Below are positions 1,688 through 17,971 of a DNA stretch of 53,340 nt, piece after piece; position 1 is the stretch's first letter, and every line of letters starts with the position of its first letter. Origin of the DNA: a bacterium (GTDB taxonomy: Bacteria > Fidelibacterota > UBA2242 > JAFGTP01); contig DATGCI010000255.1 in assembly GCA_035312185.1 (NCBI GenBank), forward strand, positions 1 to 53,340, given 5' to 3'. The notes beneath the pieces are model-generated. The model worked only from the letters and a program-made list of their open reading frames with translations, was not told the origin of the DNA and searched no databases. The position numbers were made by a program, and so were the translations under genes.

Positions 1688-4318
1688 ATGACTAAAGTCA
1701 AACAGAATAAAGGTGCAACTCCGGTCATGCGGCAATTCTTTTCTGTTAAAGCTCAATATCCGGACGCCATTGTGCTCTTTAGAATGGGTGATTTTTACGA
1801 AACTTTTGAGGAAGATGCCAAGAAAACGGCGCGCATTTTAAATATTAATTTAACAAAAAGAAAAAATGGCAAAGCCTCCTCAGTGCCTTTGGCTGGTTTC
1901 CCTTATCATTCTCTCAATAATTATCTGCATAAATTGCTCAATGCCGGTTACAAAGTTGCAATTTGTGAACAGGTTGAAGATCCCAAAAAGGCCAAGACTG
2001 TAGTTAAAAGAGAAGTGGTCGAGGTCGTTACTCCCGGGACTGCTATGTCAGGCAAATACCTGGAGAATAATAAGAATAATTATCTAATTTCAGTCCAATT
2101 TCATCGCAAAGATGCGGGTATTTCTGCGATTGATGTTTCTACTGGAGAATTTATTCTGACTGAAGTCCACAAAGATAGAGTCAAGGAAAAGGTCATGGCT
2201 TTTGGCCCTTCTGAAATTATTTGCCCGGAGAAATACAAAGATGAAATCTATGAACTATTCTCCCGAACGGTTTTGCGGATAACTCCTCTTCCGGACTGGA
2301 TGTATGAATATGACGAAGCTTATCAGCGTCTGACTGAGCATTTTGAAGTTAGCAATCTAAAAGGCTTTGGTTGTGAAAATGCTGGTCTTGGAATTGGCTC
2401 TGCTGGAGCTATTCTTAACTATCTTCAGGAAAATTATCAGAATAATTTGTCCCATATTCCCAAAATTCAGTGGGAAAGCGATGATGATATCCTTGGCCTC
2501 GATGAATTCACTCAGAAAAATCTGGAAATTACCAGAACAATGCAGGGCGGCAGCAAAGAGGGTACGCTTCTCAATGTAATCAATGAAACAGTCTCACCTA
2601 TGGGATCCCGCCTTCTGAAAAAATGGCTGATCCGGCCTCTTCGCCGCATTAGCGAGATAAATTCCCGTCTTGATAAGGTTGGTTTTTACTTTCAGGATCG
2701 TGAGGAAAGAAGCCGAATAAGAGAAATCCTCAAAGAATGCGGCGATATTGAAAGATTGCTTGCCAAACTGAGTGCTGATCGAGCTAATGCTAAAGATATC
2801 TCACTGCTGGGCTACAGTCTCAAACTTTTGCCCGATATCGTTGCTAATATTAAGAATGAAGCCATATTTGAAGATATTATGGAACAGGTTGACTTTCTTG
2901 AGGAGGCTATTGAGCTCATTGATGAATCTCTCAAGGATGAAGAGGATTTGCCTGTTTCCATTCGAGAAGGTGGCTTCATTGCTGATGGATATAATGAACA
3001 ATTGGATGAATATCGTAGCCTGGTAAAAAATAGTAAGGATTGGATCGCACAGATGCAAAAAACTGAGCGGGAAAATCTGGACATTTCTTCTCTGAAAGTT
3101 GGCTATAATAAAGTACATGGCTATTACATAGAAGTAACTAAAACCCACACCGATAAAGTACCGGATAATTATATTAGAAAACAGACTCTGGTCAATTCTG
3201 AGCGCTACATTACAGAAGACTTAAAGGAGTATGAAGAGAAACTGCTCAGTGCTGAAGACAAAATTGGCGATCTGGAATATGAACTATTTCAGGAAATTCG
3301 GGAGAAATTGCTTGTTCATATTGAAGCTATACAAAAAGATGCTGCAGCAGTTGCTCAACTTGATGTATTTTCTAGCCTGGCGGAACTGGCAGAAGAAAAG
3401 GATTATTGTAAACCGGAAGTCAAAAATGATACAGAAATTCGCATCAAAGAAGGACGCCATCCTGTTGTTGAAGATTTGATGCCAGCTGGAGAAAAGTTCG
3501 TTACCAATGATCTCCATATAGATAATTTGCGCAAACAGATCTTCATAATCACCGGGCCCAATATGTCTGGTAAATCAACTTATTTGCGGCAGATTGGACT
3601 AATTGTCTTGATGGCTCAAATGGGTAGTTTTGTTCCGGCTTCAAAAGCTATCATTGGAGTGGTTGATAAAATTTTCACCAGAGTTGGGGCCAGCGATAAT
3701 CTGGCTGCCGGAGAATCTACCTTTATGACTGAGATGATCGAAGCCGCCAATATTCTCAATAATGCCACCAATCAATCGCTGGTCTTACTTGATGAAATTG
3801 GTCGGGGAACATCGACCTACGATGGAATGGCTCTGGCCTGGGCTATTACTGAGTATCTTCACAATAATGACAAAACTGCTGCAAAAACTCTTTTCGCAAC
3901 CCATTATCATGAACTAACGGAACTTGAGAAAATTTTACCACGAGTTATCAATTATAATGTGTCCGTAAAAGAATATGGTGATGAAATTGTCTTCATGCGC
4001 AAAGTTGTACCAGGAGCTTGTGACCAGAGTTATGGTGTGCATGTTGCTCGCATGGCCGGTCTTCCCAAGAAGATAATTCACCGTTCTAATGAAATTCTCA
4101 ATAATTTATCTTCCAGTGAAAAAGCGCTACCTGTGGATGGTGAAAATTTCAGACAACTCGATGATAATCCCAACCAAATAGACCTGTTTTCCCAAAAAGA
4201 TGAAGAAGCTGAAAAGTTGAAAAAGGAAATTGAATCTGTTGAAATTGATCATATGACTCCCATGCAGGCTCTCAAAAAATTAGACCAATTAAAAAAGGAT
4301 TACAGTTCGGAGCAATAA
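1688..4318 (+). CDS. mutS: DNA mismatch repair protein MutS
   Basis: N-terminal mismatch-binding motif GDFYETF; Walker A GPNMSGKST; STFMTEM; LLDEIGRGTSTYDG; 876 aa. Confidence 0.97.
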   Translation: MTKVKQNKGATPVMRQFFSVKAQYPDAIVLFRMGDFYETFEEDAKKTARILNINLTKRKNGKASSVPLAGFPYHSLNNYLHKLLNAGYKVAICEQVEDPKKAKTVVKREVVEVVTPGTAMSGKYLENNKNNYLISVQFHRKDAGISAIDVSTGEFILTEVHKDRVKEKVMAFGPSEIICPEKYKDEIYELFSRTVLRITPLPDWMYEYDEAYQRLTEHFEVSNLKGFGCENAGLGIGSAGAILNYLQENYQNNLSHIPKIQWESDDDILGLDEFTQKNLEITRTMQGGSKEGTLLNVINETVSPMGSRLLKKWLIRPLRRISEINSRLDKVGFYFQDREERSRIREILKECGDIERLLAKLSADRANAKDISLLGYSLKLLPDIVANIKNEAIFEDIMEQVDFLEEAIELIDESLKDEEDLPVSIREGGFIADGYNEQLDEYRSLVKNSKDWIAQMQKTERENLDISSLKVGYNKVHGYYIEVTKTHTDKVPDNYIRKQTLVNSERYITEDLKEYEEKLLSAEDKIGDLEYELFQEIREKLLVHIEAIQKDAAAVAQLDVFSSLAELAEEKDYCKPEVKNDTEIRIKEGRHPVVEDLMPAGEKFVTNDLHIDNLRKQIFIITGPNMSGKSTYLRQIGLIVLMAQMGSFVPASKAIIGVVDKIFTRVGASDNLAAGESTFMTEMIEAANILNNATNQSLVLLDEIGRGTSTYDGMALAWAITEYLHNNDKTAAKTLFATHYHELTELEKILPRVINYNVSVKEYGDEIVFMRKVVPGACDQSYGVHVARMAGLPKKIIHRSNEILNNLSSSEKALPVDGENFRQLDDNPNQIDLFSQKDEEAEKLKKEIESVEIDHMTPMQALKKLDQLKKDYSSEQ

Positions 4319-5359
4319 ATGAAAAACTTTGCCTATAAAAAGCCTTTAATATTTTTGGTGATCTTATATCTTACAGCTATTTTGCCTGTTTTTGGTTTTG
4401 GGGTCAAGTATGGAGATGAATTTCTCAGATTTGGTACGGGAGTTCGAGAAAATAGTCTTGGCGGGGCCGCTGTATCAAGTTCTGAGCCCGTAGTCGGTGC
4501 TTATTGGAACCCTGCCCTTGTTTCACAAACAAAACGCTTCAAGGCCCAAATTATGCACAGTGAAGAATTTGCTGGAGTTGTTAATAATGACCACTTTTTT
4601 GTTAATGTACCGGGAAAGAGAAATCTCAATTTTGCAGCCGGTTTTTTTCGTACAGGTGTAGATAATATTCCGGCTACTGCAAATACATTAATCGAATATG
4701 GAACAGAAAACGGTCAACTTGATGCTGGCGATCGGATTGATTATGATAAAATCTCCTATTTTAATGCTTCAGAATCAGCCTTTTTCCTGGCTGCAGCCCG
4801 TTCAATTTCTCATGATTTATCTGTTGGGGCAACCTTTAAGAGCATTCACAAAAATCTCTATGAACAGTATGCCTGGGGTTTTGGTCTGGATGCCGGAATT
4901 TTTTACCAACCACTAGAAAATTTGCAAACTGGTGCAGTCCTGCGTAATATTACAACGACATTTTTATTTTGGAATGATGGTGAGCGAGAAATTATCAAGC
5001 CTTCTTTGGCTGTGGGCGGTTCCTATGGAATGTCAATAAATTCACTAAAACTTAAAATCCGTCCTATGGTTGGTCTTGATATGGATCTGGAAGGTGAACA
5101 AAATAATGTGGATCTCAATCTTCAGACCATGAATGTCCGCTTAAGAAGTGGATTGGAAATTGTGTACAACCAATTGATCGCCATTCGAGCCGGTCGCGAT
5201 GATCTGGGCAGCTTTCATCTGGGATGTGGACTGAAAACTCCCTATGGCAATCTGGATTATGGTTTTGCTATGGGGCAGGGCTATTCCGATCTAGGTAATT
5301 CCCATAGATTGGGTTTGACTCTTGATATTAGAGCGATTCAGAATTTTATTACGGAATAA
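4319..5359 (+). CDS. Outer-membrane beta-barrel protein, PorV/PorQ-like
   Basis: Signal-peptide-like N-terminus MKNFAYKKPLIFLVILYLTAILPVFG; LGGAAV...YWNPAL motif and alternating Gly/aromatic pattern; ATG abuts the mutS stop. Confidence 0.45.
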   Translation: MKNFAYKKPLIFLVILYLTAILPVFGFGVKYGDEFLRFGTGVRENSLGGAAVSSSEPVVGAYWNPALVSQTKRFKAQIMHSEEFAGVVNNDHFFVNVPGKRNLNFAAGFFRTGVDNIPATANTLIEYGTENGQLDAGDRIDYDKISYFNASESAFFLAAARSISHDLSVGATFKSIHKNLYEQYAWGFGLDAGIFYQPLENLQTGAVLRNITTTFLFWNDGEREIIKPSLAVGGSYGMSINSLKLKIRPMVGLDMDLEGEQNNVDLNLQTMNVRLRSGLEIVYNQLIAIRAGRDDLGSFHLGCGLKTPYGNLDYGFAMGQGYSDLGNSHRLGLTLDIRAIQNFITE

Positions 5360-5423
5360 TTTTTCATCAGTAGTAGCATAGAAACTTGCAATTAAGAGTA
5401 TAAAGGCATTAATTTAGAAATAT

Positions 5424-6680
5424 ATGATTACTACTTATATTAACTTTGGTATATTATTTGTCCTGCTTTTTTTGTCAGGGTTTTTCTCCGGTTCTGAAAC
5501 GGCTCTATTTTCTCTCACCGAGTTGCAGAAGAAAAATCTGCGGAGTAAAACGCCTGACAAAGGCACGAAAATCAGCAATTTGCTGGAAAATCCGGGCAAA
5601 TTGATCATTACCATTATCCTTGGGAATGAATTTGTAAATGTGGCAATATCAACACTTTCAGCAGGATTGATCATCACTATTTTTAATCAAGAAGTGCCCT
5701 GGATCAACATCTTTATCGTCTTGCCCACAATCTTACTTTTTGGCGAAATTGTACCTAAAACTTTTGCTATCAATAATAATGAAAAATTTTCCCGTCTAAT
5801 AGCCTCGCCTTTGACTCTTTTCAATAAGCTTATCACGCCTTTTCGTTGGCTAATCCATCATGTTTCCGATGCGATTGTCAATATTTTTGTGCGGGAAGAA
5901 TCCCGGGGTGGCAATATTCTAACCGAGGATGTTGTCAAGACGATTATAGAAGAAGGTGAAAAAGAGGGCGTTCTTGATCGTGAAGAAAAATATTATATTA
6001 ATAAGATATTTGACTTTGGAGACACACTTTTACGGGATATTATGACGCCTCGCTCCAATTTATTTGTTCTGCCGATTGATATGAATCTTAGTGAAATGAT
6101 CACTAAGATCAAGGAAAATCATTATTCGGCTGTCCCTATTTATAAAAATAATATTGATAATATTCAGGGAATAATTTTTGCTACAGATCTAATTGGTTTG
6201 ACAGAGGAGGAAATCAATAATTCCGCCGAGACTATTCAGAGGCTGCTGAGAAAACCTGTTTTCATTTCGGAAGCAACCCGGGCTGATGAGATGTTCAAAA
6301 AATTTCAGCAGCAAAAGATTTCAAAGGCTATCACCATTGACGAATACGGTGGTGTACGAGGAATGATAACGATGGAAGACCTGCTGGAAGTTATTTTCGG
6401 CGACATTATCGATGAATATGAGGTCAATGATAAAAAATACAAGCAGATTGCTCCTGATCAATATACTATGGATGGTGATCTCACACTGGAAGAGTTCAAC
6501 AAACTTTTTGATTCTGATTTTAGTTCCGAATACATTGAAACTCTAGGTGGCTTTTTACTGAATATTTTTGGAGAATTGCCGGATCAGAATGCCACGATTT
6601 ATTATTCCGATTTTTATTTCAAGGTCGCAGAAGTGGAAAATAATAAGATAAAAAAAGTAAGGGTGAAAAAAGTAAAATAA
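5424..6680 (+). CDS. CNNM/HlyC-CorC family membrane protein (DUF21 - CBS pair - CorC_HlyC)
   Basis: N-terminal TM region with GSETALFSL; CBS-pair region; C-terminal CorC-type domain; 418 aa. Confidence 0.85.
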   Translation: MITTYINFGILFVLLFLSGFFSGSETALFSLTELQKKNLRSKTPDKGTKISNLLENPGKLIITIILGNEFVNVAISTLSAGLIITIFNQEVPWINIFIVLPTILLFGEIVPKTFAINNNEKFSRLIASPLTLFNKLITPFRWLIHHVSDAIVNIFVREESRGGNILTEDVVKTIIEEGEKEGVLDREEKYYINKIFDFGDTLLRDIMTPRSNLFVLPIDMNLSEMITKIKENHYSAVPIYKNNIDNIQGIIFATDLIGLTEEEINNSAETIQRLLRKPVFISEATRADEMFKKFQQQKISKAITIDEYGGVRGMITMEDLLEVIFGDIIDEYEVNDKKYKQIAPDQYTMDGDLTLEEFNKLFDSDFSSEYIETLGGFLLNIFGELPDQNATIYYSDFYFKVAEVENNKIKKVRVKKVK

Positions 6681-7921
6681 TGTCAGTAGCTGCCTCGCTC
6701 ATAATAATTCTAATCTGTGTAATTGGTGAAGCCTTTTTCTCTGGTTCGGAAATAGCTCTTGTATCAGTTGACAAAATTAAAATGCGTCATCAAGCCCAGC
6801 AAGGCCAAAGTGCTGCCCAATTGATTACTAAAACAATCAAATCACCTGAGAAAATTTTGGGGACTACACTTCTGGGAACTAATGTATTTACTGCTACAAA
6901 TACCACTGTGGCTGCGTCTATGTTTTACAAATTACTGGGGCCTCCAGGAATTACAGTCTCTTTGATCACTATGGCTTTTGTCAATTGGATTTTCTGTGAA
7001 ATCGTTCCCAAAAGCGTTTTTCAGCAACTTTCCGATAAAATAACTCCGAAAATCATTTACCCATTGAAATTTTTCTATTATCTGTTTTTTCCAGTTGTAT
7101 GGTTTTTTACGACTGTAGCCGGATTTTTAACTACAATTCTGCAGGGCGGAAAAGCTGATCAGGATAATACTTTTGTCAGCCGCAACGAACTTAAAAGTCT
7201 GATGAAAATGAAGCATTCAAAAAGTGATGTAAAGCCTGGCGAAAAACAGATGATCAGCAAAATGCTGGATTTCAACGAAATTGAAGTCGGTGAAATTTTC
7301 AACCATCTTAGTAATGTGGCAGCAATTAGTAGAGATTCCACGGTGGAAGAAGCCATCCAAAAATTTAAAAACACAAAGCATCGGCGCTTGCCTGTCTATA
7401 AAAACCGGATAGATAAAATAGTCGGCATTATTAATAGTTTTGATATTATGGCGGAGGACAAAAATAAAAAGATTAAATTCTATGTTCGTCCGGCATTTTA
7501 TGTCCCTCCTTCTAAAAAGATCGCTGTTCTTCTAGAAGAATTACAAACGAATGGTCGCAATATGGCTATTGTTGTTGATGAATTTGGCGGAGCTGAGGGT
7601 ATCATTACTATTGAAGATATTTTGGAAGAAGTTGTCGGTGAAATTGAAGATGAATATGACCGGCAAAAAAGGCGCTATCGGATTACAGAAGATGGAGCCT
7701 TTATTCTTGATGCTCACATTGAACTTGATATAATCAATAGCGAACTAGAACTCGATCTTCCAGAAGGTGACTATGAAACTCTGGCCGGACTGGTCTCGCA
7801 TCATTTCAGAAGAATCCCTCAGGACGGCGAAAGTATTCAGGTTGAAAATTATCAGATCGATGTTCTCAAAGCCAATCAAAGAGCTGTGATGAAAGTTAAG
7901 ATAAAAGAAATTGAGGAATAG
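6680..7921 (+). CDS. CNNM/HlyC-CorC family membrane protein, tandem paralog
   Basis: GSEIALVSV in the N-terminal TM region, CBS pair, CorC-type C-terminus; start overlaps the stop of the preceding paralog. Confidence 0.85.
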   Translation: MSVAASLIIILICVIGEAFFSGSEIALVSVDKIKMRHQAQQGQSAAQLITKTIKSPEKILGTTLLGTNVFTATNTTVAASMFYKLLGPPGITVSLITMAFVNWIFCEIVPKSVFQQLSDKITPKIIYPLKFFYYLFFPVVWFFTTVAGFLTTILQGGKADQDNTFVSRNELKSLMKMKHSKSDVKPGEKQMISKMLDFNEIEVGEIFNHLSNVAAISRDSTVEEAIQKFKNTKHRRLPVYKNRIDKIVGIINSFDIMAEDKNKKIKFYVRPAFYVPPSKKIAVLLEELQTNGRNMAIVVDEFGGAEGIITIEDILEEVVGEIEDEYDRQKRRYRITEDGAFILDAHIELDIINSELELDLPEGDYETLAGLVSHHFRRIPQDGESIQVENYQIDVLKANQRAVMKVKIKEIEE

Positions 7922-7994
7922 TACTTTTATTTTTTTTTATTTTGATAATATCAAAAGATTAGTAAACTTTAATTCTATTTTGATAAATAAGTAT

Positions 7995-9845
7995 TTAATC
8001 AGAAAGATATTCATTAATTCCTTCGGCAGCAAGTTTAGCATCGGAAATTGCAGTAACAGCGTCTAGATTTGTATTTACAATATCTCCACCAGCAAAAACA
8101 TTGGGAATAGATGTCATCCCATTTTTATCAATTGCCACTTTTTTTCTTTTAGTAAATTCAAGTTCTTTTTCGTATTTACCTAAAAATGAAAAATCAGGTC
8201 TCTGGCCAATAGCCTCTATGATCATGTCGCCTCTAATAAATTTGGTATTGTTTTCATTGTAAGTTGGTGAAAAGCGGCCATTTTCATCAAATACTGATTC
8301 TACTTTTTTACATTCTAATCCTTTAATTTTTCCATTCTCATTAAGGACGACTTCTTTCGGTCCCCAGGTAGGATTGAACTGAATGCCTTCCTCTTTCGCT
8401 TCTGTGATTTCTTCCTCTGTAGCGGGAATTTCATCCCAGCATTCCAGACAAACAGTTTTGGTTTTTACTTTTTCCTTGGGATGTTGCATATGCTGAAGCC
8501 GTATCGATTCACGAGCCACATCCATGGCAACATTGCCTCCGCCAATAACAATAACCTCTTTCCCAACTTTTCTTTGTTCACCGACCTTGTTATCCTTCAG
8601 AAAATCAAGGGCTTGTTGACATCTATCTGAATTTTTAACTCCTGTAGAAAAACTTACTGTATTACCTATTCCTAAAAATACAGAATCGTAATTTTCCAAT
8701 AATTTTTCAAATTCTATATCTTCACCCACTTGAGTGTCGAATTGAAATTGAACTCCAAGTGATTCTATATAATTCACATCTTTATCAATACTTTCCAGTG
8801 GCAATCTGTATGTTGGTGGCCCTGTTCTGAGTGCCCCCCCACCGCCGGAAAGTTCCTCAAACACGATGACTCTATGTCCTTGTAAACGCAGAAAATAGGC
8901 CAATGAGAGTCCACTTGGTCCGGCTCCAATAATGGCAATTTTTTTACCAGTAGGTTTTCCTGGTTGTATTTCAAGTGCCTCCTTGTAATTTTTGACCGTG
9001 TCTGCGGCATAACGTTTAAGCCATCTGATGGCTAGGGAATCACCTTGAATTTTTAATGAACAGGCATCTTCACAATACTTCATGCAGACCCGCCCACAAA
9101 TTGATGGAATAGGATTGTCTTCGTATATTTTATTTAAAGATTTCTCGGGTTTATTTTTAGCGATGGCATCAATATAATCAGAAATTTTCAAATGGGCAGG
9201 ACAGGCTTCTTCACAAAGTCCACATTCGAGACACCGGTAGGCCTCTTCTATAGCTTGATTCTTATTATAGCCCAGCACCTGTTCAATAAAAGATAGTTTC
9301 CTCTTCTCTGGAGGTATCTGAGGCATTTCAATTCTATCCGGTTCAAAAAGAGCATATTCCAATTTAGGTGCAAATCCCTGATAATTTTCTTTTCTGTGGT
9401 TGAGGCTGGCCTTTAAGACTGAATAATCATCACCAGATACAAAATTTTCTTGATCAACTTTTTCATTTTTAGGAATAAAAGTAAAAGTATCAGTATTAAA
9501 ATGAATATGAAAATAATCTCTGGTTAATGATAGGGATCCGGGAGGACAAATATCAACACAAAGACCACAAAAACAGCATCTACCATAATCAAGTTTGGGG
9601 CGTTCGTCCTTGATCCCCTCATCAGGCTTAGCCACTAATTCTGAGATTTTAACCATTTCTATAGCTTCGTTAGGGCAAATGTCAGCACAATTACCACAAC
9701 CAGTGCATTTTTCCCAGTCATTAGTGTGAAACCCCCTATATCTGGAGGCTGGTTCTTTTAATTCAAAGGGATATTGTAAAGTTTTTGGTTTTTGAAATAA
9801 AAATTTTATGGCTTTAAAGGGATTTAATAAACTCGTTTTTGACAT
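7995..9845 (-). CDS. Fusion protein: NuoI/MbxN-like 2x[4Fe-4S] subunit plus GltD/NfnB/SudA-like FAD/NAD(P)H oxidoreductase
   Basis: N-terminus has CTGCGNCADICP and CCFCGLCVDICP. Middle has RCLECGLCEEACP and ICGRVCMKYCEDAC, the GltD N-domain pattern. Then IAIIGAGPSGLSLA (FAD fold) and VIVIGGGNVAMDVA (NAD(P)H fold). Confidence 0.8.
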   Translation of the reverse strand: MSKTSLLNPFKAIKFLFQKPKTLQYPFELKEPASRYRGFHTNDWEKCTGCGNCADICPNEAIEMVKISELVAKPDEGIKDERPKLDYGRCCFCGLCVDICPPGSLSLTRDYFHIHFNTDTFTFIPKNEKVDQENFVSGDDYSVLKASLNHRKENYQGFAPKLEYALFEPDRIEMPQIPPEKRKLSFIEQVLGYNKNQAIEEAYRCLECGLCEEACPAHLKISDYIDAIAKNKPEKSLNKIYEDNPIPSICGRVCMKYCEDACSLKIQGDSLAIRWLKRYAADTVKNYKEALEIQPGKPTGKKIAIIGAGPSGLSLAYFLRLQGHRVIVFEELSGGGGALRTGPPTYRLPLESIDKDVNYIESLGVQFQFDTQVGEDIEFEKLLENYDSVFLGIGNTVSFSTGVKNSDRCQQALDFLKDNKVGEQRKVGKEVIVIGGGNVAMDVARESIRLQHMQHPKEKVKTKTVCLECWDEIPATEEEITEAKEEGIQFNPTWGPKEVVLNENGKIKGLECKKVESVFDENGRFSPTYNENNTKFIRGDMIIEAIGQRPDFSFLGKYEKELEFTKRKKVAIDKNGMTSIPNVFAGGDIVNTNLDAVTAISDAKLAAEGINEYLSD

Positions 9846-9859
9846 TTAATATAACCTCT

Positions 9860-10960
9860 TTATCTATCGATTTCAGGGGCAACAACATATAAACTCATCA
9901 TAATATTTCCAACATCAGCAATATCTTCCCCTACCAATAAATTTTCTAAAATTGTTAGACCATGGGAGTATGAAGGCGTACGAAAGTGAACTCTATAGGG
10001 CTTTTTACCACCACCACTAACAATATAAAGTCCTAGTTCACCGCGCGAGGATTCACACCTTACATAGGCCTCGCCTTCCGGTATTTTCCATTTAAAAGGA
10101 TTTGGAGTTTTTGTGTAAACCGGACCCTTTTTAGGCATTTTATTAATTAGTTTAAAGATCATGTGCACGCTTTCAATCATTTCATCGTGAATGGTTAATA
10201 ATCGTGAATAAGCATCCCCGCCTTTTCTGGTTGGCACATACCATTCTACTTGATCGTAAGCTGCATAAGGTTCAATTTTTCTTATGTCATATTTCATCCC
10301 GGTGGCTCTAATTGCATGGCCGACTGCCCCCATTTTTTGGGCATTTTCTCGGTCTAATTTTCCAATACCTTTTGTCCGTTTTTTAAAAAGCCTATTTTCA
10401 AAAAATGTAGAATTGTAATCCGGTATTTTTCCACCAATTGTGTGGAGTGTTTCAATGATTTTATCTTCGAAACCATTAGGAAAATCACGTCTTACTCCAC
10501 CAGGCCGAATATAAATATGGTAAACCCTGGCTCCTGTCAGTTCTTCAAATAAATCCAGAATTAAGTCTCTATGATACATTGCCCAATTAGCAACTGTATC
10601 AAACCCGAGCATATTTGAATAGGCCCATAGACCAAATAGATGAGAGGCTACTCTGGCAAGCTCAAGGTAAATGCTTCTTATATATTTTCCTCTTTCAGGA
10701 ACATCTATTGCCGCTAATTTTTCTACCCCCATAGAATAAATTAATTCTATATGATCTGGTTCTACTACGTTTATGCGACATACTAGAGGAAAATTTTGCA
10801 TCCAGGTTCGACATTCCATAAGTTTTTCAAAACCACGATGCAAATAGCCGGGATTAGCAGTAGCTTTTTTAATTCGGTCGCCCTCCACATTTAAGGTAAT
10901 GCTGAAGTTTCCAACCATGCCGAGATGCTGCGGCCCATAATATAGTTCTAGTTCTCGCAT
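9860..10960 (-). CDS. NuoD/MbxL-like subunit (homologous to group-4 hydrogenase large subunits but without NiFe cysteine ligands)
   Basis: GPQH...GYLHRGFEKLME...ARVASHL...GGVRRD...ESSRGELGLY...EIDR matches the NuoD/MbhL architecture; no CxxC motif at either end. Confidence 0.85.
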   Translation of the reverse strand: MRELELYYGPQHLGMVGNFSITLNVEGDRIKKATANPGYLHRGFEKLMECRTWMQNFPLVCRINVVEPDHIELIYSMGVEKLAAIDVPERGKYIRSIYLELARVASHLFGLWAYSNMLGFDTVANWAMYHRDLILDLFEELTGARVYHIYIRPGGVRRDFPNGFEDKIIETLHTIGGKIPDYNSTFFENRLFKKRTKGIGKLDRENAQKMGAVGHAIRATGMKYDIRKIEPYAAYDQVEWYVPTRKGGDAYSRLLTIHDEMIESVHMIFKLINKMPKKGPVYTKTPNPFKWKIPEGEAYVRCESSRGELGLYIVSGGGKKPYRVHFRTPSYSHGLTILENLLVGEDIADVGNIMMSLYVVAPEIDR

Positions 10961-11051
10961 TTCCTTCCTTTTTAATTATCTAAGTCACTATTGAGGTTGA
11001 AATAATGTTTCATTTACAATTATTTATTTTTTCATATTTTTTATTCTATTG

Positions 11052-11558
11052 TTAATGATCTTCTATCTCCGGGATATTACAAAACATATCATCCACAAAT
11101 TTTCTGGTATCGAAATTTTTTCTAAATGGAGGTATTTCATATTCTATTTCTAAAAAGAGGGGCTTTAGACGAGGATGGCCCTGGAAATGTATTCCAAAAA
11201 GTTCATAAATTTCGCGTTCATAGGGCTCGGCGTTTTCAAATATATTGATAACTGTCATAAACCTAGCTTTCTCTCGGGAGATTCTTGTTTTTATTATGAT
11301 ATTTTGTTTTTCTCTATGATGAAATTCATCATCTCTTTTCATGTAAGCAGAGACAATATAGACTAGTTCAAATTTATTCTCATTAATAAGATCCACACAT
11401 GAGATTAGGGCTAAATGTTCATATCCGGCATTTTTTAGGTAACTCAAAATGGAAATTACTCCATCTTTTGAGATGTTAATTATCATTCGATTCTCTTCCG
11501 GAATATTTATATCTATACTGTCAAATGCCATTTTAATCTTTTGTTTTAAATCATTCAT
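11052..11558 (-). CDS. NuoC/MbxK-like subunit
   Basis: 168 aa; ERE(I/V)YE-(L/M)FG-type motif (EREIYELFGIHFQGHP); position between NuoB-like and NuoD-like genes. Confidence 0.7.
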   Translation of the reverse strand: MNDLKQKIKMAFDSIDINIPEENRMIINISKDGVISILSYLKNAGYEHLALISCVDLINENKFELVYIVSAYMKRDDEFHHREKQNIIIKTRISREKARFMTVINIFENAEPYEREIYELFGIHFQGHPRLKPLFLEIEYEIPPFRKNFDTRKFVDDMFCNIPEIEDH

Positions 11559-11568
11559 TAAATTTTCC

Positions 11569-12111
11569 TCATTTGAATAATGGGGGCCAGTCTAATGAAC
11601 CCAGAATTTTCTCCTGATTAGCTCGATACTGGTCATAATTATTCCGATACTTTTTGTATCCATTGGCCATATCATTATCAATCATTTTCCAGAGATGGGT
11701 AACGGCTATAAATATAGCTTCCGGACGGGGCATACATCCTGCAATCCAGCCATCTACTGGTATGTATTTGTCGAGATGTTTAATTGTATTGTAGGAATCC
11801 CAGTACATACCACCGTTGATAGGGCAGGACCCAAAACCAACGGTATATTTAGGCTCCGGCATTTGTTCATAGGTCCTGATAATAGCTTTTAATGTCTTGA
11901 GAGATACGTATCCTGTTATCAAGAACAGATTGGCTTGTCTGGGTGTTGCTGCAGGAGTTACTCCAAAACGCTCTGCATCCCATCGGGTAGTAATTGTTGG
12001 TGGAATTTCAATGATACCGCAACCAGTGCAAAAATAGACAGCATGAAGGGAGTATTTATTTCCCATCTTTGCTGGAGTTTTTATCCATTTTATAAGTTTA
12101 TTTCTATCCAT
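11569..12111 (-). CDS. NuoB/MbxJ-like [4Fe-4S] subunit
   Basis: FCTGCGIIE, GSCPINGG and GCMPRPE supply the four Cys of an N2-type cluster. Confidence 0.85.
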   Translation of the reverse strand: MDRNKLIKWIKTPAKMGNKYSLHAVYFCTGCGIIEIPPTITTRWDAERFGVTPAATPRQANLFLITGYVSLKTLKAIIRTYEQMPEPKYTVGFGSCPINGGMYWDSYNTIKHLDKYIPVDGWIAGCMPRPEAIFIAVTHLWKMIDNDMANGYKKYRNNYDQYRANQEKILGSLDWPPLFK

Positions 12112-12127
12112 TAAAATTCTCTCTTCT

Positions 12128-13027
12128 TTATATTAAAACTGTTACAACCAGGCCCAAAAAAGCCAGAAAAGCAGGAATACCAAATAAATATTTTATTGCT
12201 TGTTCTGTTCTTAAACGGGGAAATACTGCATTAATAAAAACTCCTAATATAAATACTAACAAAACTTTAAGGAAAAAAAATGCTAAATTATTTGCTCCGC
12301 CTAAAAATAGGTTTACAAAAAGAGAAATACCAATTACAATAGCAAAAGCATGCTCAATCTTGGCAAGAGCAAGATATGTTCCTCCGTATTCTACCATTGG
12401 TCCTGATGAAATTTCTTGTGGGGCTTTAGAAATTTCAAAAGGCCGAACACCTAAAATTGCCGGAAGTATCAAGATATAAGCAATTCCAGGCAAGACTAAG
12501 GGCAACCTGAACAATGACCAGCTTCCCTTTTGTTGCAAAGCAACAATTTCTGTAATCGATATGGTTCTATAATGAGTCATCAAAGCTAAAAGAATTAGCA
12601 ATAGGGAAAATTCATATCCAAGGGTTAACAGCAATTTTCTGGATATTCCAATACTGCTGTTAGGATTGGCTGCTTCACCACTACTTAATGCTATTCCTAG
12701 AGGTGCTAATAGCATTATATATAAAATTACAAGTAAACCTCCAGAGTTACTCAAAGGATGGATTCGGCCAAAAGGAATAAACAAAACAACTGCAATAGAA
12801 CCTGCAATAGAAAAGATTATCCCAAAATTGAACAGGTGGCCATGACTTACACTTTTCTGGCTGAACATTCTAATTATGTCAATGACCGGCTGGGTAATAG
12901 GAGGTCCATACCGCCAGTGGATCCGTGCCATTATTTTTCTCGATAATCCTAAAAAGAAAACACCAACAATAAGAGCTAGAAGAGGAGATAATATGATTTC
13001 AAATATATGCATTACCACAAACTCCAT
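12128..13027 (-). CDS. NuoH/MbxM-like membrane subunit
   Basis: 299-aa polytopic protein with a WRYGPP..QP..D motif typical of NuoH/HycD-like subunits. Confidence 0.8.
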   Translation of the reverse strand: MEFVVMHIFEIILSPLLALIVGVFFLGLSRKIMARIHWRYGPPITQPVIDIIRMFSQKSVSHGHLFNFGIIFSIAGSIAVVLFIPFGRIHPLSNSGGLLVILYIMLLAPLGIALSSGEAANPNSSIGISRKLLLTLGYEFSLLLILLALMTHYRTISITEIVALQQKGSWSLFRLPLVLPGIAYILILPAILGVRPFEISKAPQEISSGPMVEYGGTYLALAKIEHAFAIVIGISLFVNLFLGGANNLAFFFLKVLLVFILGVFINAVFPRLRTEQAIKYLFGIPAFLAFLGLVVTVLI

Positions 13028-14850
13028 TTTAATTGTACAAATATTAAGATTGCCAGGAATAGGATGATATACATTACATAATTACCTACATAGCCATTGT
13101 ATATTTTTCGCAGTTTACTCGATATTTTCTTTATCCAATCTGCCAAAAGCGTATAGAATATATCGACAATATCTTTTAAATAAGGCCTTATCACTCTGTA
13201 TAAGGGCTTATAAAACTCGACTGTATAATGATATCTACCCCGGGGCACTGATGTACCAGCAGCATAGGTATCATCCTGATTTACAGATTTGGCTTTTGAA
13301 CCCAATTTTGACAATAGCCATACCAGAAGAATTCCTGCTGAAATAGCAGTAAAAATATTAATTGTATTCAATGCACCAGTTGATGAAGCCAAACCCCATA
13401 AGTTTATATTCAAAGATTCTAATCCAAAAGAGATAATAATTGAATTTATTGCTTTTAATGGGAGACCAGGAAAAATACCCAAAATGATTACAGCTAGGGA
13501 TAAAATTATCATTGGCAATTGCATAGAAAAGGGGGCCCTGCCAATTGATTTGAATTTTTCAGGAGTCTGACCTAGAAAAATATTGTGAATTAACTTAAAG
13601 CTATACAAAATAGTTCCCCAGGTTCCAAATAATGCAAAAAAAGCCAGAAAAGGTGATTTATTAAGTATTAAGGATTTATAGATAAACCACTTTGAAACAA
13701 AACCATTTGTCAATGGAACACCGATTAAACCACATGCTCCAACTAAAGCGGCAACGAATGTAATAGGCATTTGTTTGATCAGCCCACCTAAAGAATTTAA
13801 ATCCCGGACTCCATCTGTTCGGTATTCTACTGCTCCTATAGCCAGAAATAAAAGGGCTTTAAATGTAGCATGATTAATGAAATGAAATATTCCACCTGTT
13901 AAACTCAAACTTGTACCAAAAGCAATTCCAAGGATAATATATCCTGCCTGAGCTACAGTTGACCAGGCTAATAATTTTTTAGCATCCTCCTGGATTAGAG
14001 CTACAAAAGTGGAAAAGATAATTGTTACAGTAGCAAGAATATTTATAACTATTGTAAAGCCTGGCAGGGATAATAATTTTTGCACTCCAACTATAACATA
14101 AAGCAGCAGAAGAAATCCATAAGTCCCCATTTTTATCAGTATCCCGGATAGAATGGCACTGAAAGGAGAAGGCGCCTCAGAATGAGCAGGGGGTAGCCAG
14201 GCATGGAAAGGTAATATAGCGTTTTTTACACCAAAGGCTACGGAGAAAAGTATCATTATAAAAATAGTGTTATACAGTGATAAATTAATATTACCTGCTA
14301 ACTGTGATATAATTAGGGTTCCCTGAGTATTTAATATGAATAGAATTCCAATAAGCATAGCCATGGATCCGAAAATGGACATTATGATATATTTTATACC
14401 GGCAGCTAGAGAAGGACCACGTTTATAACTAATTAGTAGGAAAGTGGCCCAGCTCATCATTTCCCAAAAAATAAAGAAACTTACTAAATCTCCTGATAAT
14501 ACTATACCGATCATTGCGGCATTAATAAAAAGAATCATAAAATAATAGAAATCTACTTTTTCTTTTCCCTTCATATAACTCAAAGAGAAAATAACAGAAA
14601 GTGAACTAAGAATGGAAATTGCAATCGCAAAAATCCAGGCTAGATTGTTGATTCTTAGAGTAAGTCGAAGTCCTAAAAATTCAAAAAGAGGGGTTTCAAT
14701 ATTTTTACCGAATAATAAAGCTATCATAGGAATCAGGGCTGTAGAAAAAACAACTGCTAAAGTTTTGCGAAGCTTGCTTGAAACTTTGCCTGCCAGGTAG
14801 GTAATTATTGCACCACTAAAAGCAACTATAAGTATTAGCGCCAAACTCAT
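13012..14850 (-). CDS. MrpA/NuoL/MbxH'-like antiporter-type subunit
   Basis: 612-aa polytopic protein; HAWLPPAHSEAPSPFSAILSG proton-pump-subunit motif. Confidence 0.85.
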   Translation of the reverse strand: MSLALILIVAFSGAIITYLAGKVSSKLRKTLAVVFSTALIPMIALLFGKNIETPLFEFLGLRLTLRINNLAWIFAIAISILSSLSVIFSLSYMKGKEKVDFYYFMILFINAAMIGIVLSGDLVSFFIFWEMMSWATFLLISYKRGPSLAAGIKYIIMSIFGSMAMLIGILFILNTQGTLIISQLAGNINLSLYNTIFIMILFSVAFGVKNAILPFHAWLPPAHSEAPSPFSAILSGILIKMGTYGFLLLLYVIVGVQKLLSLPGFTIVINILATVTIIFSTFVALIQEDAKKLLAWSTVAQAGYIILGIAFGTSLSLTGGIFHFINHATFKALLFLAIGAVEYRTDGVRDLNSLGGLIKQMPITFVAALVGACGLIGVPLTNGFVSKWFIYKSLILNKSPFLAFFALFGTWGTILYSFKLIHNIFLGQTPEKFKSIGRAPFSMQLPMIILSLAVIILGIFPGLPLKAINSIIISFGLESLNINLWGLASSTGALNTINIFTAISAGILLVWLLSKLGSKAKSVNQDDTYAAGTSVPRGRYHYTVEFYKPLYRVIRPYLKDIVDIFYTLLADWIKKISSKLRKIYNGYVGNYVMYIILFLAILIFVQLKWSLW

Positions 14851-15119
14851 CCCAGTACGCTCCTTATATAATCTATTTGATCTATAAGCTCTGAACTAGC
14901 CGGACGTAAAATTCCGTTTATAAAATCTGGATATATTCCGATAAATATTATAATTGAAGCAAAAATTATCATTGGTATTAATCCTGCAGCTGGTGCTTCT
15001 GCTTTTTTAATATCAGGGTTGCCATCTTTGAAATATACTACTTGAATCACACGGAAAAAATAGGCGCCTTCAATTACAGTTCCGAGCAAAACAAGCCCAA
15101 TTAATATTATGTTCAACAT
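14847..15119 (-). CDS. C-terminal two-to-three-TM segment of the MrpD/NuoN-like subunit, expressed as a separate ORF or split fragment
   Basis: ATG directly follows the in-frame TAA of the 403-aa ORF; 403 + 90 aa equals typical MrpD length; hydrophobic. Confidence 0.5.
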   Translation of the reverse strand: MLNIILIGLVLLGTVIEGAYFFRVIQVVYFKDGNPDIKKAEAPAAGLIPMIIFASIIIFIGIYPDFINGILRPASSELIDQIDYIRSVLG

Positions 15120-16331
15120 TTATCCAGTAGTCAGGGCAGCCTTAACAATCGTAAATTTGCTTACAAAACCCACAAATGGTGGGAGGCCTACCATAGAAAA
15201 AACTCCGATAGTAAATAGAAGTGTGGTAACCGGCATCTTCTCGCCAATACCTTCGAAAGAATCAATTTCCATAGAACCAGTTCTATAGATCATAAAGCCT
15301 GTTGCCAGAAATAATAATGCTTTCCCTAGCGTATGACTTATCATTTGAAATAATCCACCGGTAATTCCAGATGATGAGGCTATTGAAAAAGCAAAAACAA
15401 TAAGACCAATCTGTCCAATACTGGAATAAGCCAGCATTCGTTTTATATTATTTTGACCAAAAGCACACAGTTCTCCAATTAAAAGTGTAACAACTCCCAG
15501 AGAAAGAAAAAATATGAAAAAGTTGGATACATTGAATATAGTAAACAGAAATCGAATAATGGCATATAAACCTACTTCAATGGCAATGCCAGAAAGAATT
15601 GCACTAATAGAAGAAGGAGCGGAGGAATGGGCGTCTGGTAGCCAGGCATTCAGAGGAAAGATAGCGGCTTCAATCTCTAATCCCGTAATAATTAGAGCCA
15701 TTGGTACTAATATAGATTTTGTTTCTACTGATTGAATTTGTCGGGCAAGATCGGCCATATTCAGACTGCCAAACTGGCCATAGAGCAGTCCAATTCCTAT
15801 CAGTAGAAGGCTTGAACCGATGGAGCCTTGAATCAAATATTTTATAGCGGATTCAATTCCTGCTTTATCTCCGAAATAGGCTACCAGAGCATAGGATGAA
15901 ATACAAAGAATCTCAAAAAATACAAAAAGATTGAATATGTCTCCAGTGAGGACAACTCCGGTTGCTCCGGTCAATAACAGCATATAAAGAATGTAATATT
16001 TCTGATGAGCACCCTCCTTGATATATTTTAGAGAGTAAATAGATACTAAAAGACCTGCTAAAGATATTAAAATGGAAAATAATATTCCAACTGGACCAGC
16101 AAAAAGGTTAATGCAAAAGGGCGGAGCGAACCCTCCAATTTTTATAATAATAGATGCATCTAAAATCCGGGGGACTAATGATACAGAAAGAATAAGATTA
16201 AAAAGGAATCCAATCACAGGCATCCATTTAACTATCTTATTTGAGAGTAATCCCAGGAGTGGTATAAAAAATGCTATGCCTAGTGGTACAGAAATTAATA
16301 AAACAGGATTTAAGTAAGTTATCTCATTCAT
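15120..16331 (-). CDS. MrpD/NuoN/MbxH-like antiporter-type subunit (lacks the usual C-terminal approx. 90 aa)
   Basis: NAWLPDAHSSAPSSISAILSG motif; polytopic; 403 aa. Confidence 0.85.
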   Translation of the reverse strand: MNEITYLNPVLLISVPLGIAFFIPLLGLLSNKIVKWMPVIGFLFNLILSVSLVPRILDASIIIKIGGFAPPFCINLFAGPVGILFSILISLAGLLVSIYSLKYIKEGAHQKYYILYMLLLTGATGVVLTGDIFNLFVFFEILCISSYALVAYFGDKAGIESAIKYLIQGSIGSSLLLIGIGLLYGQFGSLNMADLARQIQSVETKSILVPMALIITGLEIEAAIFPLNAWLPDAHSSAPSSISAILSGIAIEVGLYAIIRFLFTIFNVSNFFIFFLSLGVVTLLIGELCAFGQNNIKRMLAYSSIGQIGLIVFAFSIASSSGITGGLFQMISHTLGKALLFLATGFMIYRTGSMEIDSFEGIGEKMPVTTLLFTIGVFSMVGLPPFVGFVSKFTIVKAALTTG

Positions 16332-16360
16332 ATAATTTTATCCTATTAAAAGTAAAATCA

Positions 16361-16723
16361 TTAGTATTTTTGCTCTCTTATTTTTTTCAAATTAAGTGTT
16401 CCGTAATGATGGAAAAGTCTGATTGCTAGGGACAGGGCCAGGGCGAGAACAGCCAATCCTATTACAATAGCTGTTAATACAAGGGCCTGAGGAACTGGAT
16501 CAACCATATTTTTGGCTTTTAATCCGATCTTTGAGAATATTGGTGCTGTGCCTTCACTAATATATCCGAGCGAAATGAGGAATATATTAACTCCGGTTTC
16601 AAGGATACTTAAACCTATTATAACTTTTATTAGATTCTTTTTTGAAAGAATAATGAATAGACCTATAAATATGAGACCAAAAGCACCAATGTAATATATA
16701 TAACTGTTTAAAAAGTCAATCAT
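16361..16723 (-). CDS. MrpC/NuoK-like subunit
   Basis: 120 aa, three TM segments, LIKVIIGLSILETGVNIFLISLGY. Confidence 0.75.
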   Translation of the reverse strand: MIDFLNSYIYYIGAFGLIFIGLFIILSKKNLIKVIIGLSILETGVNIFLISLGYISEGTAPIFSKIGLKAKNMVDPVPQALVLTAIVIGLAVLALALSLAIRLFHHYGTLNLKKIREQKY

Positions 16724-17406
16724 CTAGTCTCCTCCATCAGATGATCTATAATTATGGTCAATTCTGAGCCTACTTTGAATCCAATTGCAATATAAATAAT
16801 GGGAATTATCCCTGCACTAAAGAGATTGTTTAATTGGCCTTTGGGAAGAAAATTGGATAAAAAGAAGTGGCCTCCAACTGCAAGACCTACTAGACCGAGA
16901 ATTAAAAAAGTCAGGCCACTCAGAGATTCTGCTAAAGTACTACCACTCTCACTGACTCTCTTACCGTGGCAGCCAAGATAGGCCAATAAAAAAGCCGATG
17001 CAATCACAGCACCACCCTGAAATCCTCCACCAGGGGAAAGATGACCATGGATAAAAATATAGGCACCGAAAATTAGGATAAGGGGAAATAAAAATCGACA
17101 TCCAGTGGAAAGAATGAGACTCGCTTCTTCTACTTTGGCTTTATTTTTATTTTGGAATGTGGCCAATACCGCTCCTAATCCAATTGCAGCCAGGAAAAGC
17201 ACTGTAACTTCTCCAAGTGTATCAAAACTTCTATATTGAACAACAACAGAGGTAACAATATTTGAAGCCCCTGTCTGTTTTCTACCCTTTGCATTGTAAT
17301 ATTTACCAACTTTGGATTTATTTTCTCCAAAATGAATGTTCTGTAAAGATGTGAAAATACCCCATGCAATAATTAGTAATAAGATTATTCCAATAATCTT
17401 TCTCAC
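16720..17406 (-). CDS. MrpB (MnhB)-domain subunit
   Basis: NIVTSVVVQYRSFDTLGEVTVLF motif typical of MnhB; polytopic. Confidence 0.75.
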   Translation of the reverse strand: MRKIIGIILLLIIAWGIFTSLQNIHFGENKSKVGKYYNAKGRKQTGASNIVTSVVVQYRSFDTLGEVTVLFLAAIGLGAVLATFQNKNKAKVEEASLILSTGCRFLFPLILIFGAYIFIHGHLSPGGGFQGGAVIASAFLLAYLGCHGKRVSESGSTLAESLSGLTFLILGLVGLAVGGHFFLSNFLPKGQLNNLFSAGIIPIIYIAIGFKVGSELTIIIDHLMEETR

Positions 17407-17642
17407 TCTTCGTACCTCTTTGTTCGCTTAATGGCGATGATAAATACTGCAGTAACTAGGGCCGCTCCTATCGAAGCTTCGGCCATGGCTACATCAGGAG
17501 CTTGTAGAAAATAGAATAAAACTGAGGCCGACAAACTAACAAGACAGGAAGCTATGACCGCACTTATCAAGTCTTTAAAAATTAAAGCTGCTACTGCCGA
17601 GACCAACATAAGTATGACCAATAGTGAAACTATAATAATCAT
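17403..17642 (-). CDS. DUF4040/MbhD-like small membrane subunit
   Basis: 79 aa; LQAPDVAMAEASIGAAL motif; 4-nt overlaps with both neighbours. Confidence 0.65.
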   Translation of the reverse strand: MIIIVSLLVILMLVSAVAALIFKDLISAVIASCLVSLSASVLFYFLQAPDVAMAEASIGAALVTAVFIIAIKRTKRYEE

Positions 17643-17971
17643 TTTGTCTCCTCGTATCCATCAAAATATTTTGTTTTGTCAACAATGCTTTGATCCCATA
17701 GTTCAACACCGATTTTTTTAGATGCTCTGGCAATTGCGTGACTGGAAATAGGATTTGTAATTAGTACAAAAAGGGCAATAAGTAAACATTTCCAAAACCA
17801 GCCCGGTTGCATTATGCCAACTCCAATAATTGTAAAAAAAGTCCCAAACGTTGTACACTTCGTTCCGGCTTGAATTCTATTATATACATCAGGTAGTCTT
17901 AGAACACCAAAATTTCCTAACATTAAAAATAAAACGCCGATGCCTGTCACAATTGTGCCGAATAATTCCAT
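17639..17971 (-). CDS. MrpG (MnhG)-like subunit
   Basis: GNFGVLRLPDVYNRIQAGTKCTTFG motif. Confidence 0.8.
   Translation of the reverse strand: MELFGTIVTGIGVLFLMLGNFGVLRLPDVYNRIQAGTKCTTFGTFFTIIGVGIMQPGWFWKCLLIALFVLITNPISSHAIARASKKIGVELWDQSIVDKTKYFDGYEETK

Follow-up and report, generated by a model that had tools for sequence, protein, structure and literature searches.

An NfnB-type flavoprotein fused to the MbsN-like subunit of a bacterial MBS/Mbx-type complex: a likely entry point for electrons from NADH

The contig DATGCI010000255.1 (assembly GCA_035312185.1), which comes from a bacterium of the Fidelibacterota and which we refer to as the window over its whole length of 53,340 nucleotides (nt), encodes on its minus strand a protein of 616 amino acids (aa) in which an MbsN/NuoI-like domain with two [4Fe–4S] clusters is joined to a complete NfnB/GltD-type flavoprotein module (7995..9845). 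The fusion is real. We consider it fairly likely that this protein is the electron-entry subunit of an ion-pumping complex of the MBS/Mbx type, which would oxidise NADH and reduce an acceptor that is not a quinone, probably sulfane sulfur. The subunit itself is of a known, catalogued and widespread kind (it corresponds to the NCBIfam model NF010590 and is in print), of which the window holds one more member.

The fused protein and its junction

The gene is a single open reading frame (ORF) of 616 codons with an ATG start, while the plus strand of the same interval is closed by many stops. Its parts are the following.

7995..9845, minus strand: fused MbsN-NfnB-type subunit, 616 aa (from the ORF call, motifs, Pfam/NCBIfam and an AlphaFold2 model)
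9510..9845, minus strand: MbsN/NuoI-like 2x[4Fe–4S] domain, residues 1–112, with two CxxCxxCxxxCP motifs
9294..9509, minus strand: linker of 72 residues, 113–184
8988..9293, minus strand: NfnB/GltD-type 2x[4Fe–4S] domain (Fer4_20), residues 185–286, with eight Cys
7998..8987, minus strand: flavin adenine dinucleotide (FAD) fold (GAGPSG) then NAD(P)H fold (GGGNVAMD), residues 287–616

An earlier interpretation of this stretch, made from its letters without database searches (the sequence-only reading), had described one 616-aa ORF in which a 2x[4Fe–4S] connector is followed by a complete module with two further clusters, an FAD fold and an NAD(P)H fold, and this description is correct in all its parts. 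The N-terminal cysteine motifs are CTGCGNCADICP (residues 47–58) and CCFCGLCVDICP (residues 90–101), those of the Fer4_20 region are RCLECGLCEEACP (204–216) and ICGRVCMKYCEDAC (249–262), GAGPSGLS occupies residues 307–314 and GGGNVAMD residues 435–442. Profile hidden Markov models detect both halves, including the GltD-like one: Pfam finds Fer4 in two stretches (1.7e-13), Fer4_7 at 46–103, Fer4_20 at 185–286 (4.8e-27) and Pyr_redox_2 at 302–599 (9.6e-27), and NCBIfam places NuoI models on residues 3–125 (2.5e-35) and gltA/GltD-type models on residues 167–615 (5.7e-82). The whole protein is covered by NF010590 (PRK13984, "putative oxidoreductase"), whose positions 6–607 of 611 align with residues 1–615 (E 2e-208). 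Neither the 16 cluster cysteines nor GxGxxG and GGGNVAxD vary among the aligned relatives (15 of 15 and 53 of 53, at 38–77% identity). At the level of sequence motifs, these ligands and folds show the chain of cofactors.

An AlphaFold2 model of the 616-aa protein, built from the 53-sequence alignment, has a mean predicted local distance difference test score (pLDDT) of 92.5 and a predicted template modelling (TM) score of 0.86. The blocks of the linker score between 84 and 94, and because the linker is modelled with such confidence the two halves are predicted to form one packed body.

The junction, at about 9450..9500, lies in the linker. We aligned metagenome assembly contigs (Logan, four runs) over 7900..10100, and left out run X1 as non-independent evidence since it is possibly the source sample. 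In run X4, a lake-water metagenome from another study, one contig of 18,220 nt spans 7976..10100 (word depth 39.6) with 72 substitutions, and its sole indel, at 9850, is intergenic. Record 12 of run X2 covers 9347..9642, and records 20 and 21 of run X3 cover 9098..9402 and 9455..9648, all three with 0 differences. The junction is therefore crossed in independent assemblies by contigs that have no indel in the gene. In a collection of 5.8 billion proteins, 6,895 of the 8,000 scored candidates match at E <= 0.001, and the best 120 of those relatives are all 613–631 aa long, with 99–100% coverage and 68–97% identity.

Because independent contigs cross the linker without indels and 120 of the 120 best matches are full length, a collapsed stop codon or a frameshift is excluded. 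It could have been argued that assembly had joined two genes by the loss of a stop or by a frameshift, given that the source metagenome-assembled genome (MAG) is fragmented (336 contigs, 75.7% complete) and that the word depth in the aligned contigs is low. In addition to the contigs and the full-length relatives, a survey of one genome per species speaks against this idea. It gave at least 598 pattern matches, at least 593 of them confirmed, and all counts of loci given below concern the best 80 of these at least 593 loci, which were probed with the window's own proteins. In 77 of the 80 loci the match starts no later than residue 6 and reaches at least residue 614, and in the other three it ends at a contig edge. 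On these three lines of evidence we reject an artefactual fusion, whose probability we regard as negligible.

The operon and the type of complex

The fused gene is the last of a tight run of minus-strand genes headed by rex, and the gene order A-B-C-D-E-G-H-H'-M-J-K-L-N is that of MBS from Pyrococcus furiosus. The twelve other subunit genes are listed here from the fused gene upwards.

9860..10960, minus strand: MbsL/NuoD-like, 366 aa, without NiFe ligands and without the complex I quinone-site His/Tyr
11052..11558, minus strand: MbsK/NuoC-like, 168 aa
11569..12111, minus strand: MbsJ/NuoB-like, 180 aa; Cys 28, 31, 96 and 126 fall without gaps on MbsJ C25, C28, C93 and C123
12128..13027, minus strand: MbsM/NuoH-like membrane anchor, 299 aa
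13012..14850, minus strand: MbsH'-like, large antiporter-type, 612 aa (NF006419 over 1–604)
14847..16331, minus strand: MbsH/MrpD-like, read as 403 aa + 90 aa, split by an in-frame TAA at 15120..15122
16361..16723, minus strand: MbsG/MnhC-like, 120 aa
16720..17406, minus strand: MbsE/MnhB-like, 228 aa
17403..17642, minus strand: MbsD-like (DUF4040-type), 79 aa
17639..17971, minus strand: MbsC/MnhG-like, 110 aa
17972..18232, minus strand: MbsB/MnhF-like, 86 aa
18229..18744, minus strand: MbsA/MnhE-like, 171 aa

The partner of the flavoprotein is, by sequence comparison, a bacterial complex-I-like oxidoreductase of the Mrp-linked MBS/Mbx type and not of the Nuo type, since its B-, D- and I-like parts match the MBS structure 6U8Y far better than they match complex I or MBH. 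The D-like subunit matches chain L of 6U8Y over its full length at 5.6e-103, complex I at 3e-69 and MBH (6cfw_L) at 2.5e-34. The B-like subunit matches chain J at 5.3e-65, with no gap over 156 residues (17–172 on 14–169) and an identical FCTGCG, against 1.4e-35 for NdhK, and the N-terminal domain of the fusion matches chain N at 7.8e-32, against 4.9e-13 for NdhI. The span of the J subunit that was compared with 6cfw_J of MBH has 118 residues instead of 121, that is three fewer, as in MbsJ. The fusion is the only N/I-type subunit of this Mrp-linked operon, in which no second N/I-type gene was found, and there is no NuoEFG input module within 7995..19441. The sequence-only reading had made the N-terminal half a NuoI-type subunit of an Mrp-type pump, of which the Mrp-type pump stands and the Nuo type does not; nor can we follow it in taking the module as a replacement of NuoEFG, since in the MBS lineage the module stands at the place where free ferredoxin docks.

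The excerpts of PMC7684303 that we cite describe the proximal cluster of MBS as being held by MbsJ C28, C93 and C123, and the tandem Cys-Cys as a feature of NuoB in complex I. The J subunit of the window has CxxC (CTGC) and not the tandem CC of cluster N2 of complex I. In an alignment to 2fug_4, His38 and Tyr87 of the quinone site of Thermus Nqo4 correspond to Val16 and Val65 of the L-like subunit; the role of these NuoD residues in the quinone site is treated in a section of PMC4758237. The cysteines of the L-like subunit are at positions 50, 61 and 302 only, none of them in the C-terminal NiFe motif. Because it lacks the C-terminal cysteines and has Val in place of both quinone-site residues, the L-like subunit is neither that of a hydrogenase nor that of a canonical quinone reductase. 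We thus reject a [NiFe] hydrogenase of group 4 (MBH), whose four NiFe cysteines are not present and whose 6cfw_L is matched at 2.5e-34 only, and we reject canonical complex I, on account of the two valines, of CTGC instead of CC, and of an operon without NuoEFG.

A less canonical possibility is that the complex is an NADH:quinone oxidoreductase, i.e. a complex I with a different input module. NCBIfam indeed labels the neighbours of the fused gene NuoB, C, D and H. A scan of the window's own genome, 75.7% complete, returned a MenA-like gene below the cut-off (86.8 bits against 102.15), as well as a NuoF-like one on another contig, also below it (477.8 against 558.65). The residues of the quinone site, the CxxC of the J subunit and the far better match to MBS chains than to complex I chains all point away from quinone reduction, which we hold to be quite improbable.

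One gene of the operon is interrupted. The mbsH-like gene (14847..16331, minus strand) has an in-frame TAA at 15120..15122, with an ATG immediately after it (15117..15122). In each of the 42 relatives whose H match is near-complete, the frame continues for at least 78 residues, and in a genome of the same genus (G001, 96% DNA identity) it is open, the codon being CAA. As all of these have an open frame, the TAA is peculiar to this assembly; either the allele is a nonsense one, or a base was miscalled at low depth.

Electron donor, Rex control and direction of electron flow

The C-terminal half had been described as a GltD/NfnB/SudA-like NAD(P)H flavoprotein; the module is complete, and it resembles NfnB/SudA (245 bits) more closely than GltD (155 bits). 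Among solved structures, phmmer ranks 9bov_A (NfnB-type, 9.2e-73), 5jca_L (P. furiosus NfnI-L, 1e-71), 8oh5_C (StnC, 4.1e-71) and 4ylf_B (Thermotoga maritima NfnB, 3.4e-69) before GltD (6s6s_G, 2.4e-44) and dihydropyrimidine dehydrogenase (DPD; 1gt8_A, 6.2e-34). The top match of the model in Foldseek is also 5jca_L (E 4.5e-46, target TM-score 0.88, root-mean-square deviation 2.6 A), and GltD (6s6t_E) reaches a target TM-score of 0.84. No structure of the fused form was found in the copy of the PDB that was searched with Foldseek, in which a solved chain covers at most 0.68 of the query.

These closest solved relatives are bifurcating NfnB-type proteins, and it may be asked whether the flavin of the fused protein also bifurcates or confurcates, with part of the electrons of NAD(P)H going to the membrane chain and part to ferredoxin. 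We find this very unlikely. There is no NfnA-type partner, GltB partner or second branch in the operon, nor an NfnA-type partner or second branch in the 80 related loci, although the latter were probed with window proteins only. All eight cysteines of the Fe–S domain are present, and in GltD and DPD this module works without bifurcating.

The residues that follow the second strand of the NAD(P)H fold (strand 461–466 of the model) are Leu467 and Glu468. P. furiosus NfnI-L (5jca_L), 9bov_A and 8oh5_C have Arg-Arg at this place, which we take to bind the 2'-phosphate in NfnB. In the superfamily of flavoproteins with two dinucleotide folds, NADH is usually preferred when this position is acidic, and the 2'-phosphate is kept out. 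The Leu-Glu form is present in 79 of the 80 loci, and it shows a conservation of at least 90% across the alignment of 53 sequences. Because Leu-Glu replaces the Arg-Arg of NfnB, the module probably prefers NADH over NADPH, which narrows down the NAD(P)H donor of the sequence-only reading.

The same reading had placed the operon under Rex, and the sequence supports this: a true rex gene and a predicted Rex box with a single mismatch head the operon.

18818..19441, minus strand: rex, redox-sensing repressor, 207 aa (NF003995, 240 bits against a cut-off of 126)
19470..19487, palindrome without strand: Rex box of 18 nt with 1 mismatch to the consensus, 29–46 nt upstream of the rex ATG
19498..19526, minus strand: sigma-70-like promoter match TTGACA-17-TAGATT (a consensus match only), which ends just before the Rex box

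A scan of the whole window gave 17 matches to the Rex box at 3 mismatches or fewer, where 6.06 are expected, and the one at 19470..19487 is the only one with 1 mismatch. Rex derepresses when NADH accumulates. For this reason we favour a complex that consumes NADH: Rex at the head of the operon fits an NADH consumer better than an NADH producer. What gives this copy its value is the combination of a clean Rex box with the Leu-Glu signature, which jointly point to NADH as the probable substrate. We found no report linking Rex to mbx in the literature outside subscription journals, to which the search was confined.

We infer the preference for NADH, the direction of electron flow, the acceptor and the ion pumping from the above, and propose the following mechanism. 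The NfnB/GltD-type module would bind NAD(P)H, most likely NADH, and pass a hydride to FAD. The electrons would then move one at a time through the two [4Fe–4S] clusters of the module, through the two [4Fe–4S] clusters of the fused MbsN-like domain, and on to the MbsJ-type proximal cluster at the J/L/M/H' interface, where an acceptor that is neither a quinone nor a proton would be reduced; the most plausible one is sulfane sulfur (polysulfide), as in P. furiosus MBS. This reaction would drive the movement of H+ or Na+ through the Mrp-type subunits. Rex would keep the operon off until the NADH/NAD+ ratio rises, so that the complex would serve as an energy-conserving sink for NADH.

The electrons may also be thought to flow the other way. 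The NfnB-type module is reversible in the Nfn enzymes, and the complex could be a ferredoxin:NAD(P)+ oxidoreductase in which ferredoxin reduces the MbsN-type clusters, then FAD and NAD(P)+, energy being conserved as in Rnf. This reading is in print for the mbx-like operons of Thermotoga and proteobacteria: in the part of that article available to us, Degli Esposti (2015) noted the gltD-related N subunit and took the flavoprotein as the site of NAD(P)+ reduction (PMC4758237). It also corresponds to an older view of P. furiosus Mbx, quoted in PMC6349859. On the contrary, electrons that follow this path would bypass the coupling site at J/L/M/H', and yet the ligands of J and all the membrane subunits are conserved. 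Derepression by Rex at high NADH suits a consumer, not a producer. Furthermore, later work established the reduction of sulfane sulfur by P. furiosus Mbx (PMC7684303). We therefore regard a ferredoxin:NAD(P)+ oxidoreductase as unlikely, and retain NADH oxidation as the preferred reading.

The connection of the fused complex with sulfur is circumstantial. In T. maritima, mbxA is upregulated 4.36-fold with S0; the accessible sections of the same paper model MBX as ferredoxin-driven and do not mention the flavoprotein (PMC9431562). MbxL is mentioned in passing in a passage of PMC6085437, and we found no mention of bacterial or fused forms in the portion of PMC8165549 that could be consulted. Carriers of the fused gene linked to sulfur include Desulfurellales, Chlorobiota, Chromatiaceae, Thiotrichaceae and Sedimenticola. 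As a side observation, a flavoprotein of 452 aa that belongs to the CoA-disulfide-reductase/NADH-oxidase family is encoded at 27057..28415 (minus strand), 17 kb away from the operon; it scores below the NCBIfam cut-offs. Pyrococcus and Thermotoga have NAD(P)H sulfur reductases that belong to this family, and the link of this gene to sulfur metabolism is likewise circumstantial.

Several observations weigh against NADH-driven, ion-pumping reduction of sulfane sulfur. The standard span from NADH to polysulfide is about 50–60 mV, against about 200 mV from ferredoxin, so that pumping ions on the NADH/polysulfide couple would be marginal; the span would widen with low sulfide and with a high NADH/NAD+ ratio, the state in which Rex is released. 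The preference for NADH leans on a rule of thumb about acidic residues, and four of the 53 aligned sequences, all distant relatives, keep Tyr-Arg-Arg. The score of the fused protein against NF010590 is 693.4 bits (694.7 in the genome scan), below the curated cut-off of 946, which is exceeded in one of 14 control genomes. The stop codon in the mbsH-like gene, if it does not stem from an error in the reads or the assembly, may impair this copy of the pump. In the L-like subunit, Asn64 and Val/Ala take the places of C85 and C385 of MbsL, with a Cys three residues earlier. This loss weighs little, since MbsL C85A/C385A mutants keep full activity (reported in the available excerpts of PMC7684303). 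The literature, searched outside subscription papers, gave no assay of any fused member, only models. Last, a Rex box (2 mismatches or fewer, within 1.2 kb upstream of the first subunit gene) was found in only seven of the 49 evaluable related operons.

Four of these seven boxes precede rex, and three precede mbsA without an adjacent rex. The latter (772..789 in L032, 1069..1086 in L036 and 1359..1376 in L051) lie directly upstream of the first Mbx gene, which suggests that in these loci Rex may act in trans. The seven boxes fall in 46,137 nt, while all 80 loci, which amount to 1,268,571 nt, hold 13; as kin are not independent, we take this as a lead and not as a statistic.

Distribution and known relatives

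The same fusion was looked for in other genomes, and it is common: the fused gene is present in at least 593 species genomes from many phyla. Judging by the record titles, the carriers include Cloacimonadota, Neomarinimicrobiota, Planctomycetota, Verrucomicrobiota, Bacteroidales, Spirochaetia, Clostridia, Halanaerobiales, Sumerlaeota, Anaerolineales, Bipolaricaulota, Desulfurellales, Chlorobiota, Kosmotogaceae and many sulfur-oxidising Gammaproteobacteria. Examples in culture are Halanaerobium saccharolyticum (L078), Prolixibacter denitrificans (L056) and Parasulfuritortus cantonensis (L084). Among representatives clustered at 50% identity, 18,596 proteins match at E <= 0.001, most of them plain relatives of NfnB or GltD; the best 150 of these 18,596 comprise 12 full-length fused forms and one that is matched over residues 1–407. 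A search for shorter proteins gave 109 matches, mostly pieces at contig ends. A few of the short N-type proteins come from long contigs, such as one of 138 aa in Thiospirochaeta perfilievii, and unfused bacterial N forms thus seem to exist.

The association with the operon is also conserved. Among the 73 loci with at least 1,300 nt upstream, an MbsL-like gene lies upstream on the same strand in 72, and it ends within 1,000 nt in 70. All eleven other scored subunits are present in 49 of the 52 loci that have at least 9 kb upstream. The one exception is a Thiotrichaceae MAG (L061, 9995..12295), whose fused gene lies between polyprenyl synthetase and rubrerythrin genes with no Mbx gene in the 10 kb upstream; the remaining operon may be elsewhere in the genome.

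The range of carriers bears on yet another reading, in which the complex operates in reverse: an ion-motive force would drive electrons from sulfide or polysulfide to NAD+ for biosynthesis, chiefly in sulfur-oxidising carriers. The potential gap is small, and Chromatiaceae, Thiotrichaceae, Ectothiorhodospiraceae, Sedimenticola, a lucinid symbiont and Parasulfuritortus are among the carriers. A paper on the Riftia symbiont, in the portion available, puts a putative Mrp-Mbx among the complexes whose direction in vivo is unknown (PMC11636981). The reverse direction is improbable: in the window the operon is headed by rex, which fits the disposal of NADH, and its closest relatives are labelled as members of fermenter-type lineages, Cloacimonadota and Neomarinimicrobiota among them.

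In the window's own order, 14 of the 41 genomes have a fused copy, the window's genome being counted. The copies form two clades, at 70–78% and 43–50% identity, both of which occur in several genomes; the protein of the window belongs to the clade with a linker insertion of 20–30 residues. The genome of the window also has a second, paralogous Mbx-type operon (clade B) with its own fused N subunit, at 42–44% identity, spread over contigs C161, C42 and C271 (L002, L005). Separately, we note that in ten loci of the 43–50% clade, from Bacteroidota-type and other genomes (L049, L052, L054, L056, L058, L067, L069, L070, L073 and L077), the H and H' genes are joined in one ORF of about 1,045 aa. The same genome as the window contains a third Mrp-linked cluster (contig C38, about 2400..9748, L006). 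It comprises two MrpD-like genes, MnhB/C/E/F/G-like genes, a NuoI-like gene of 205 aa that stands free and, at the edge of the contig, a NuoD-like gene. The cluster, whose large subunit is truncated by that edge, may encode a hydrogenase of the MBH type or some other Ehr-type complex.

If the module oxidises NADH, many anaerobes would own an energy-conserving NADH sink that needs neither a quinone nor a hydrogenase, and models of redox balance and ATP yield for fermenters and sulfur-cycling bacteria would change. Current models, in the parts of the two papers available, either make bacterial MBX ferredoxin-driven (PMC9431562) or leave its direction open (PMC11636981). A broader proposal, which we put forward tentatively and regard as possible rather than probable, is that the fused complexes are a widespread NADH:sulfane-sulfur oxidoreductase of anaerobes, quinone-independent, gated by Rex, specific for NADH and ion-pumping, and that they are reversed in sulfur oxidisers, where they would act as a sulfide:NAD+ reductase driven by the ion-motive force. 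Were this so, fermenters would conserve energy while disposing of NADH on polysulfide, and ferredoxin-based models of MBX, for example that of T. maritima, would be overturned. The copy in the window is itself ordinary; its clear Rex box strengthens the link to NADH, and it comes with a private stop codon in a pump subunit.

The nearest characterised system is P. furiosus MBS (formerly Mbx, 6U8Y). It has the same 13 types of subunits in the same order, including the duplicated H/H', a J subunit that aligns without gaps and keeps CxxC...C...C, no NiFe site, and no His/Tyr of the quinone site. MbsN, however, is there a free-standing protein of 208 aa onto which ferredoxin docks, whereas here the N domain bears an NfnB/GltD-type flavoprotein of 500 aa; the operon of the window is bacterial and headed by rex, and its donor is presumably NADH rather than ferredoxin. 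NuoEFG of complex I has an analogous role, being a flavin-containing NADH dehydrogenase that feeds the NuoI/NuoB chain of clusters. Its fold and cofactor are unrelated (flavin mononucleotide in NuoF, FAD here), and in the window the link is covalent and the complex that is fed is of the MBS type, with residues that do not suggest quinone reduction.

NfnB/SudA (5JCA, 4YLF) shares with the flavoprotein half its fold, FAD, the NAD(P)H site and the two-cluster Fe–S domain. The fused protein differs in that no NfnA partner is encoded near it, in an insertion of 8 residues before the second strand of the NAD(P)H fold, in Leu-Glu instead of Arg-Arg, in having Cys for all eight Fe–S ligands (one is Thr in P. 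furiosus NfnI-L), and in an N-terminus that is joined to a NuoI/MbsN-type domain. In GltD and in the N-terminal half of DPD, the same module serves as a plain input from NAD(P)H to Fe–S clusters; the similarity to them is weaker than to NfnB, and instead of GltB or the catalytic half of DPD the module here has a membrane complex as its partner.

Last, the bacterial mbx-like or Mrp-Mbx operons with a gltD-related N subunit (PMC4758237) and NF010590 represent the same fusion in the same operon. The Kosmotogaceae locus of our survey (L066) and the gammaproteobacterial loci carry the full operon, and the mbx-like operons have a rubrerythrin gene after the fused gene, as in L061 (from the part of PMC4758237 that was available). 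The window differs from them by its membership of the linker-insertion clade, by a score below the cut-off of NF010590, and by the rex gene directly upstream, which it has in common with only seven of the 49 evaluable related operons.

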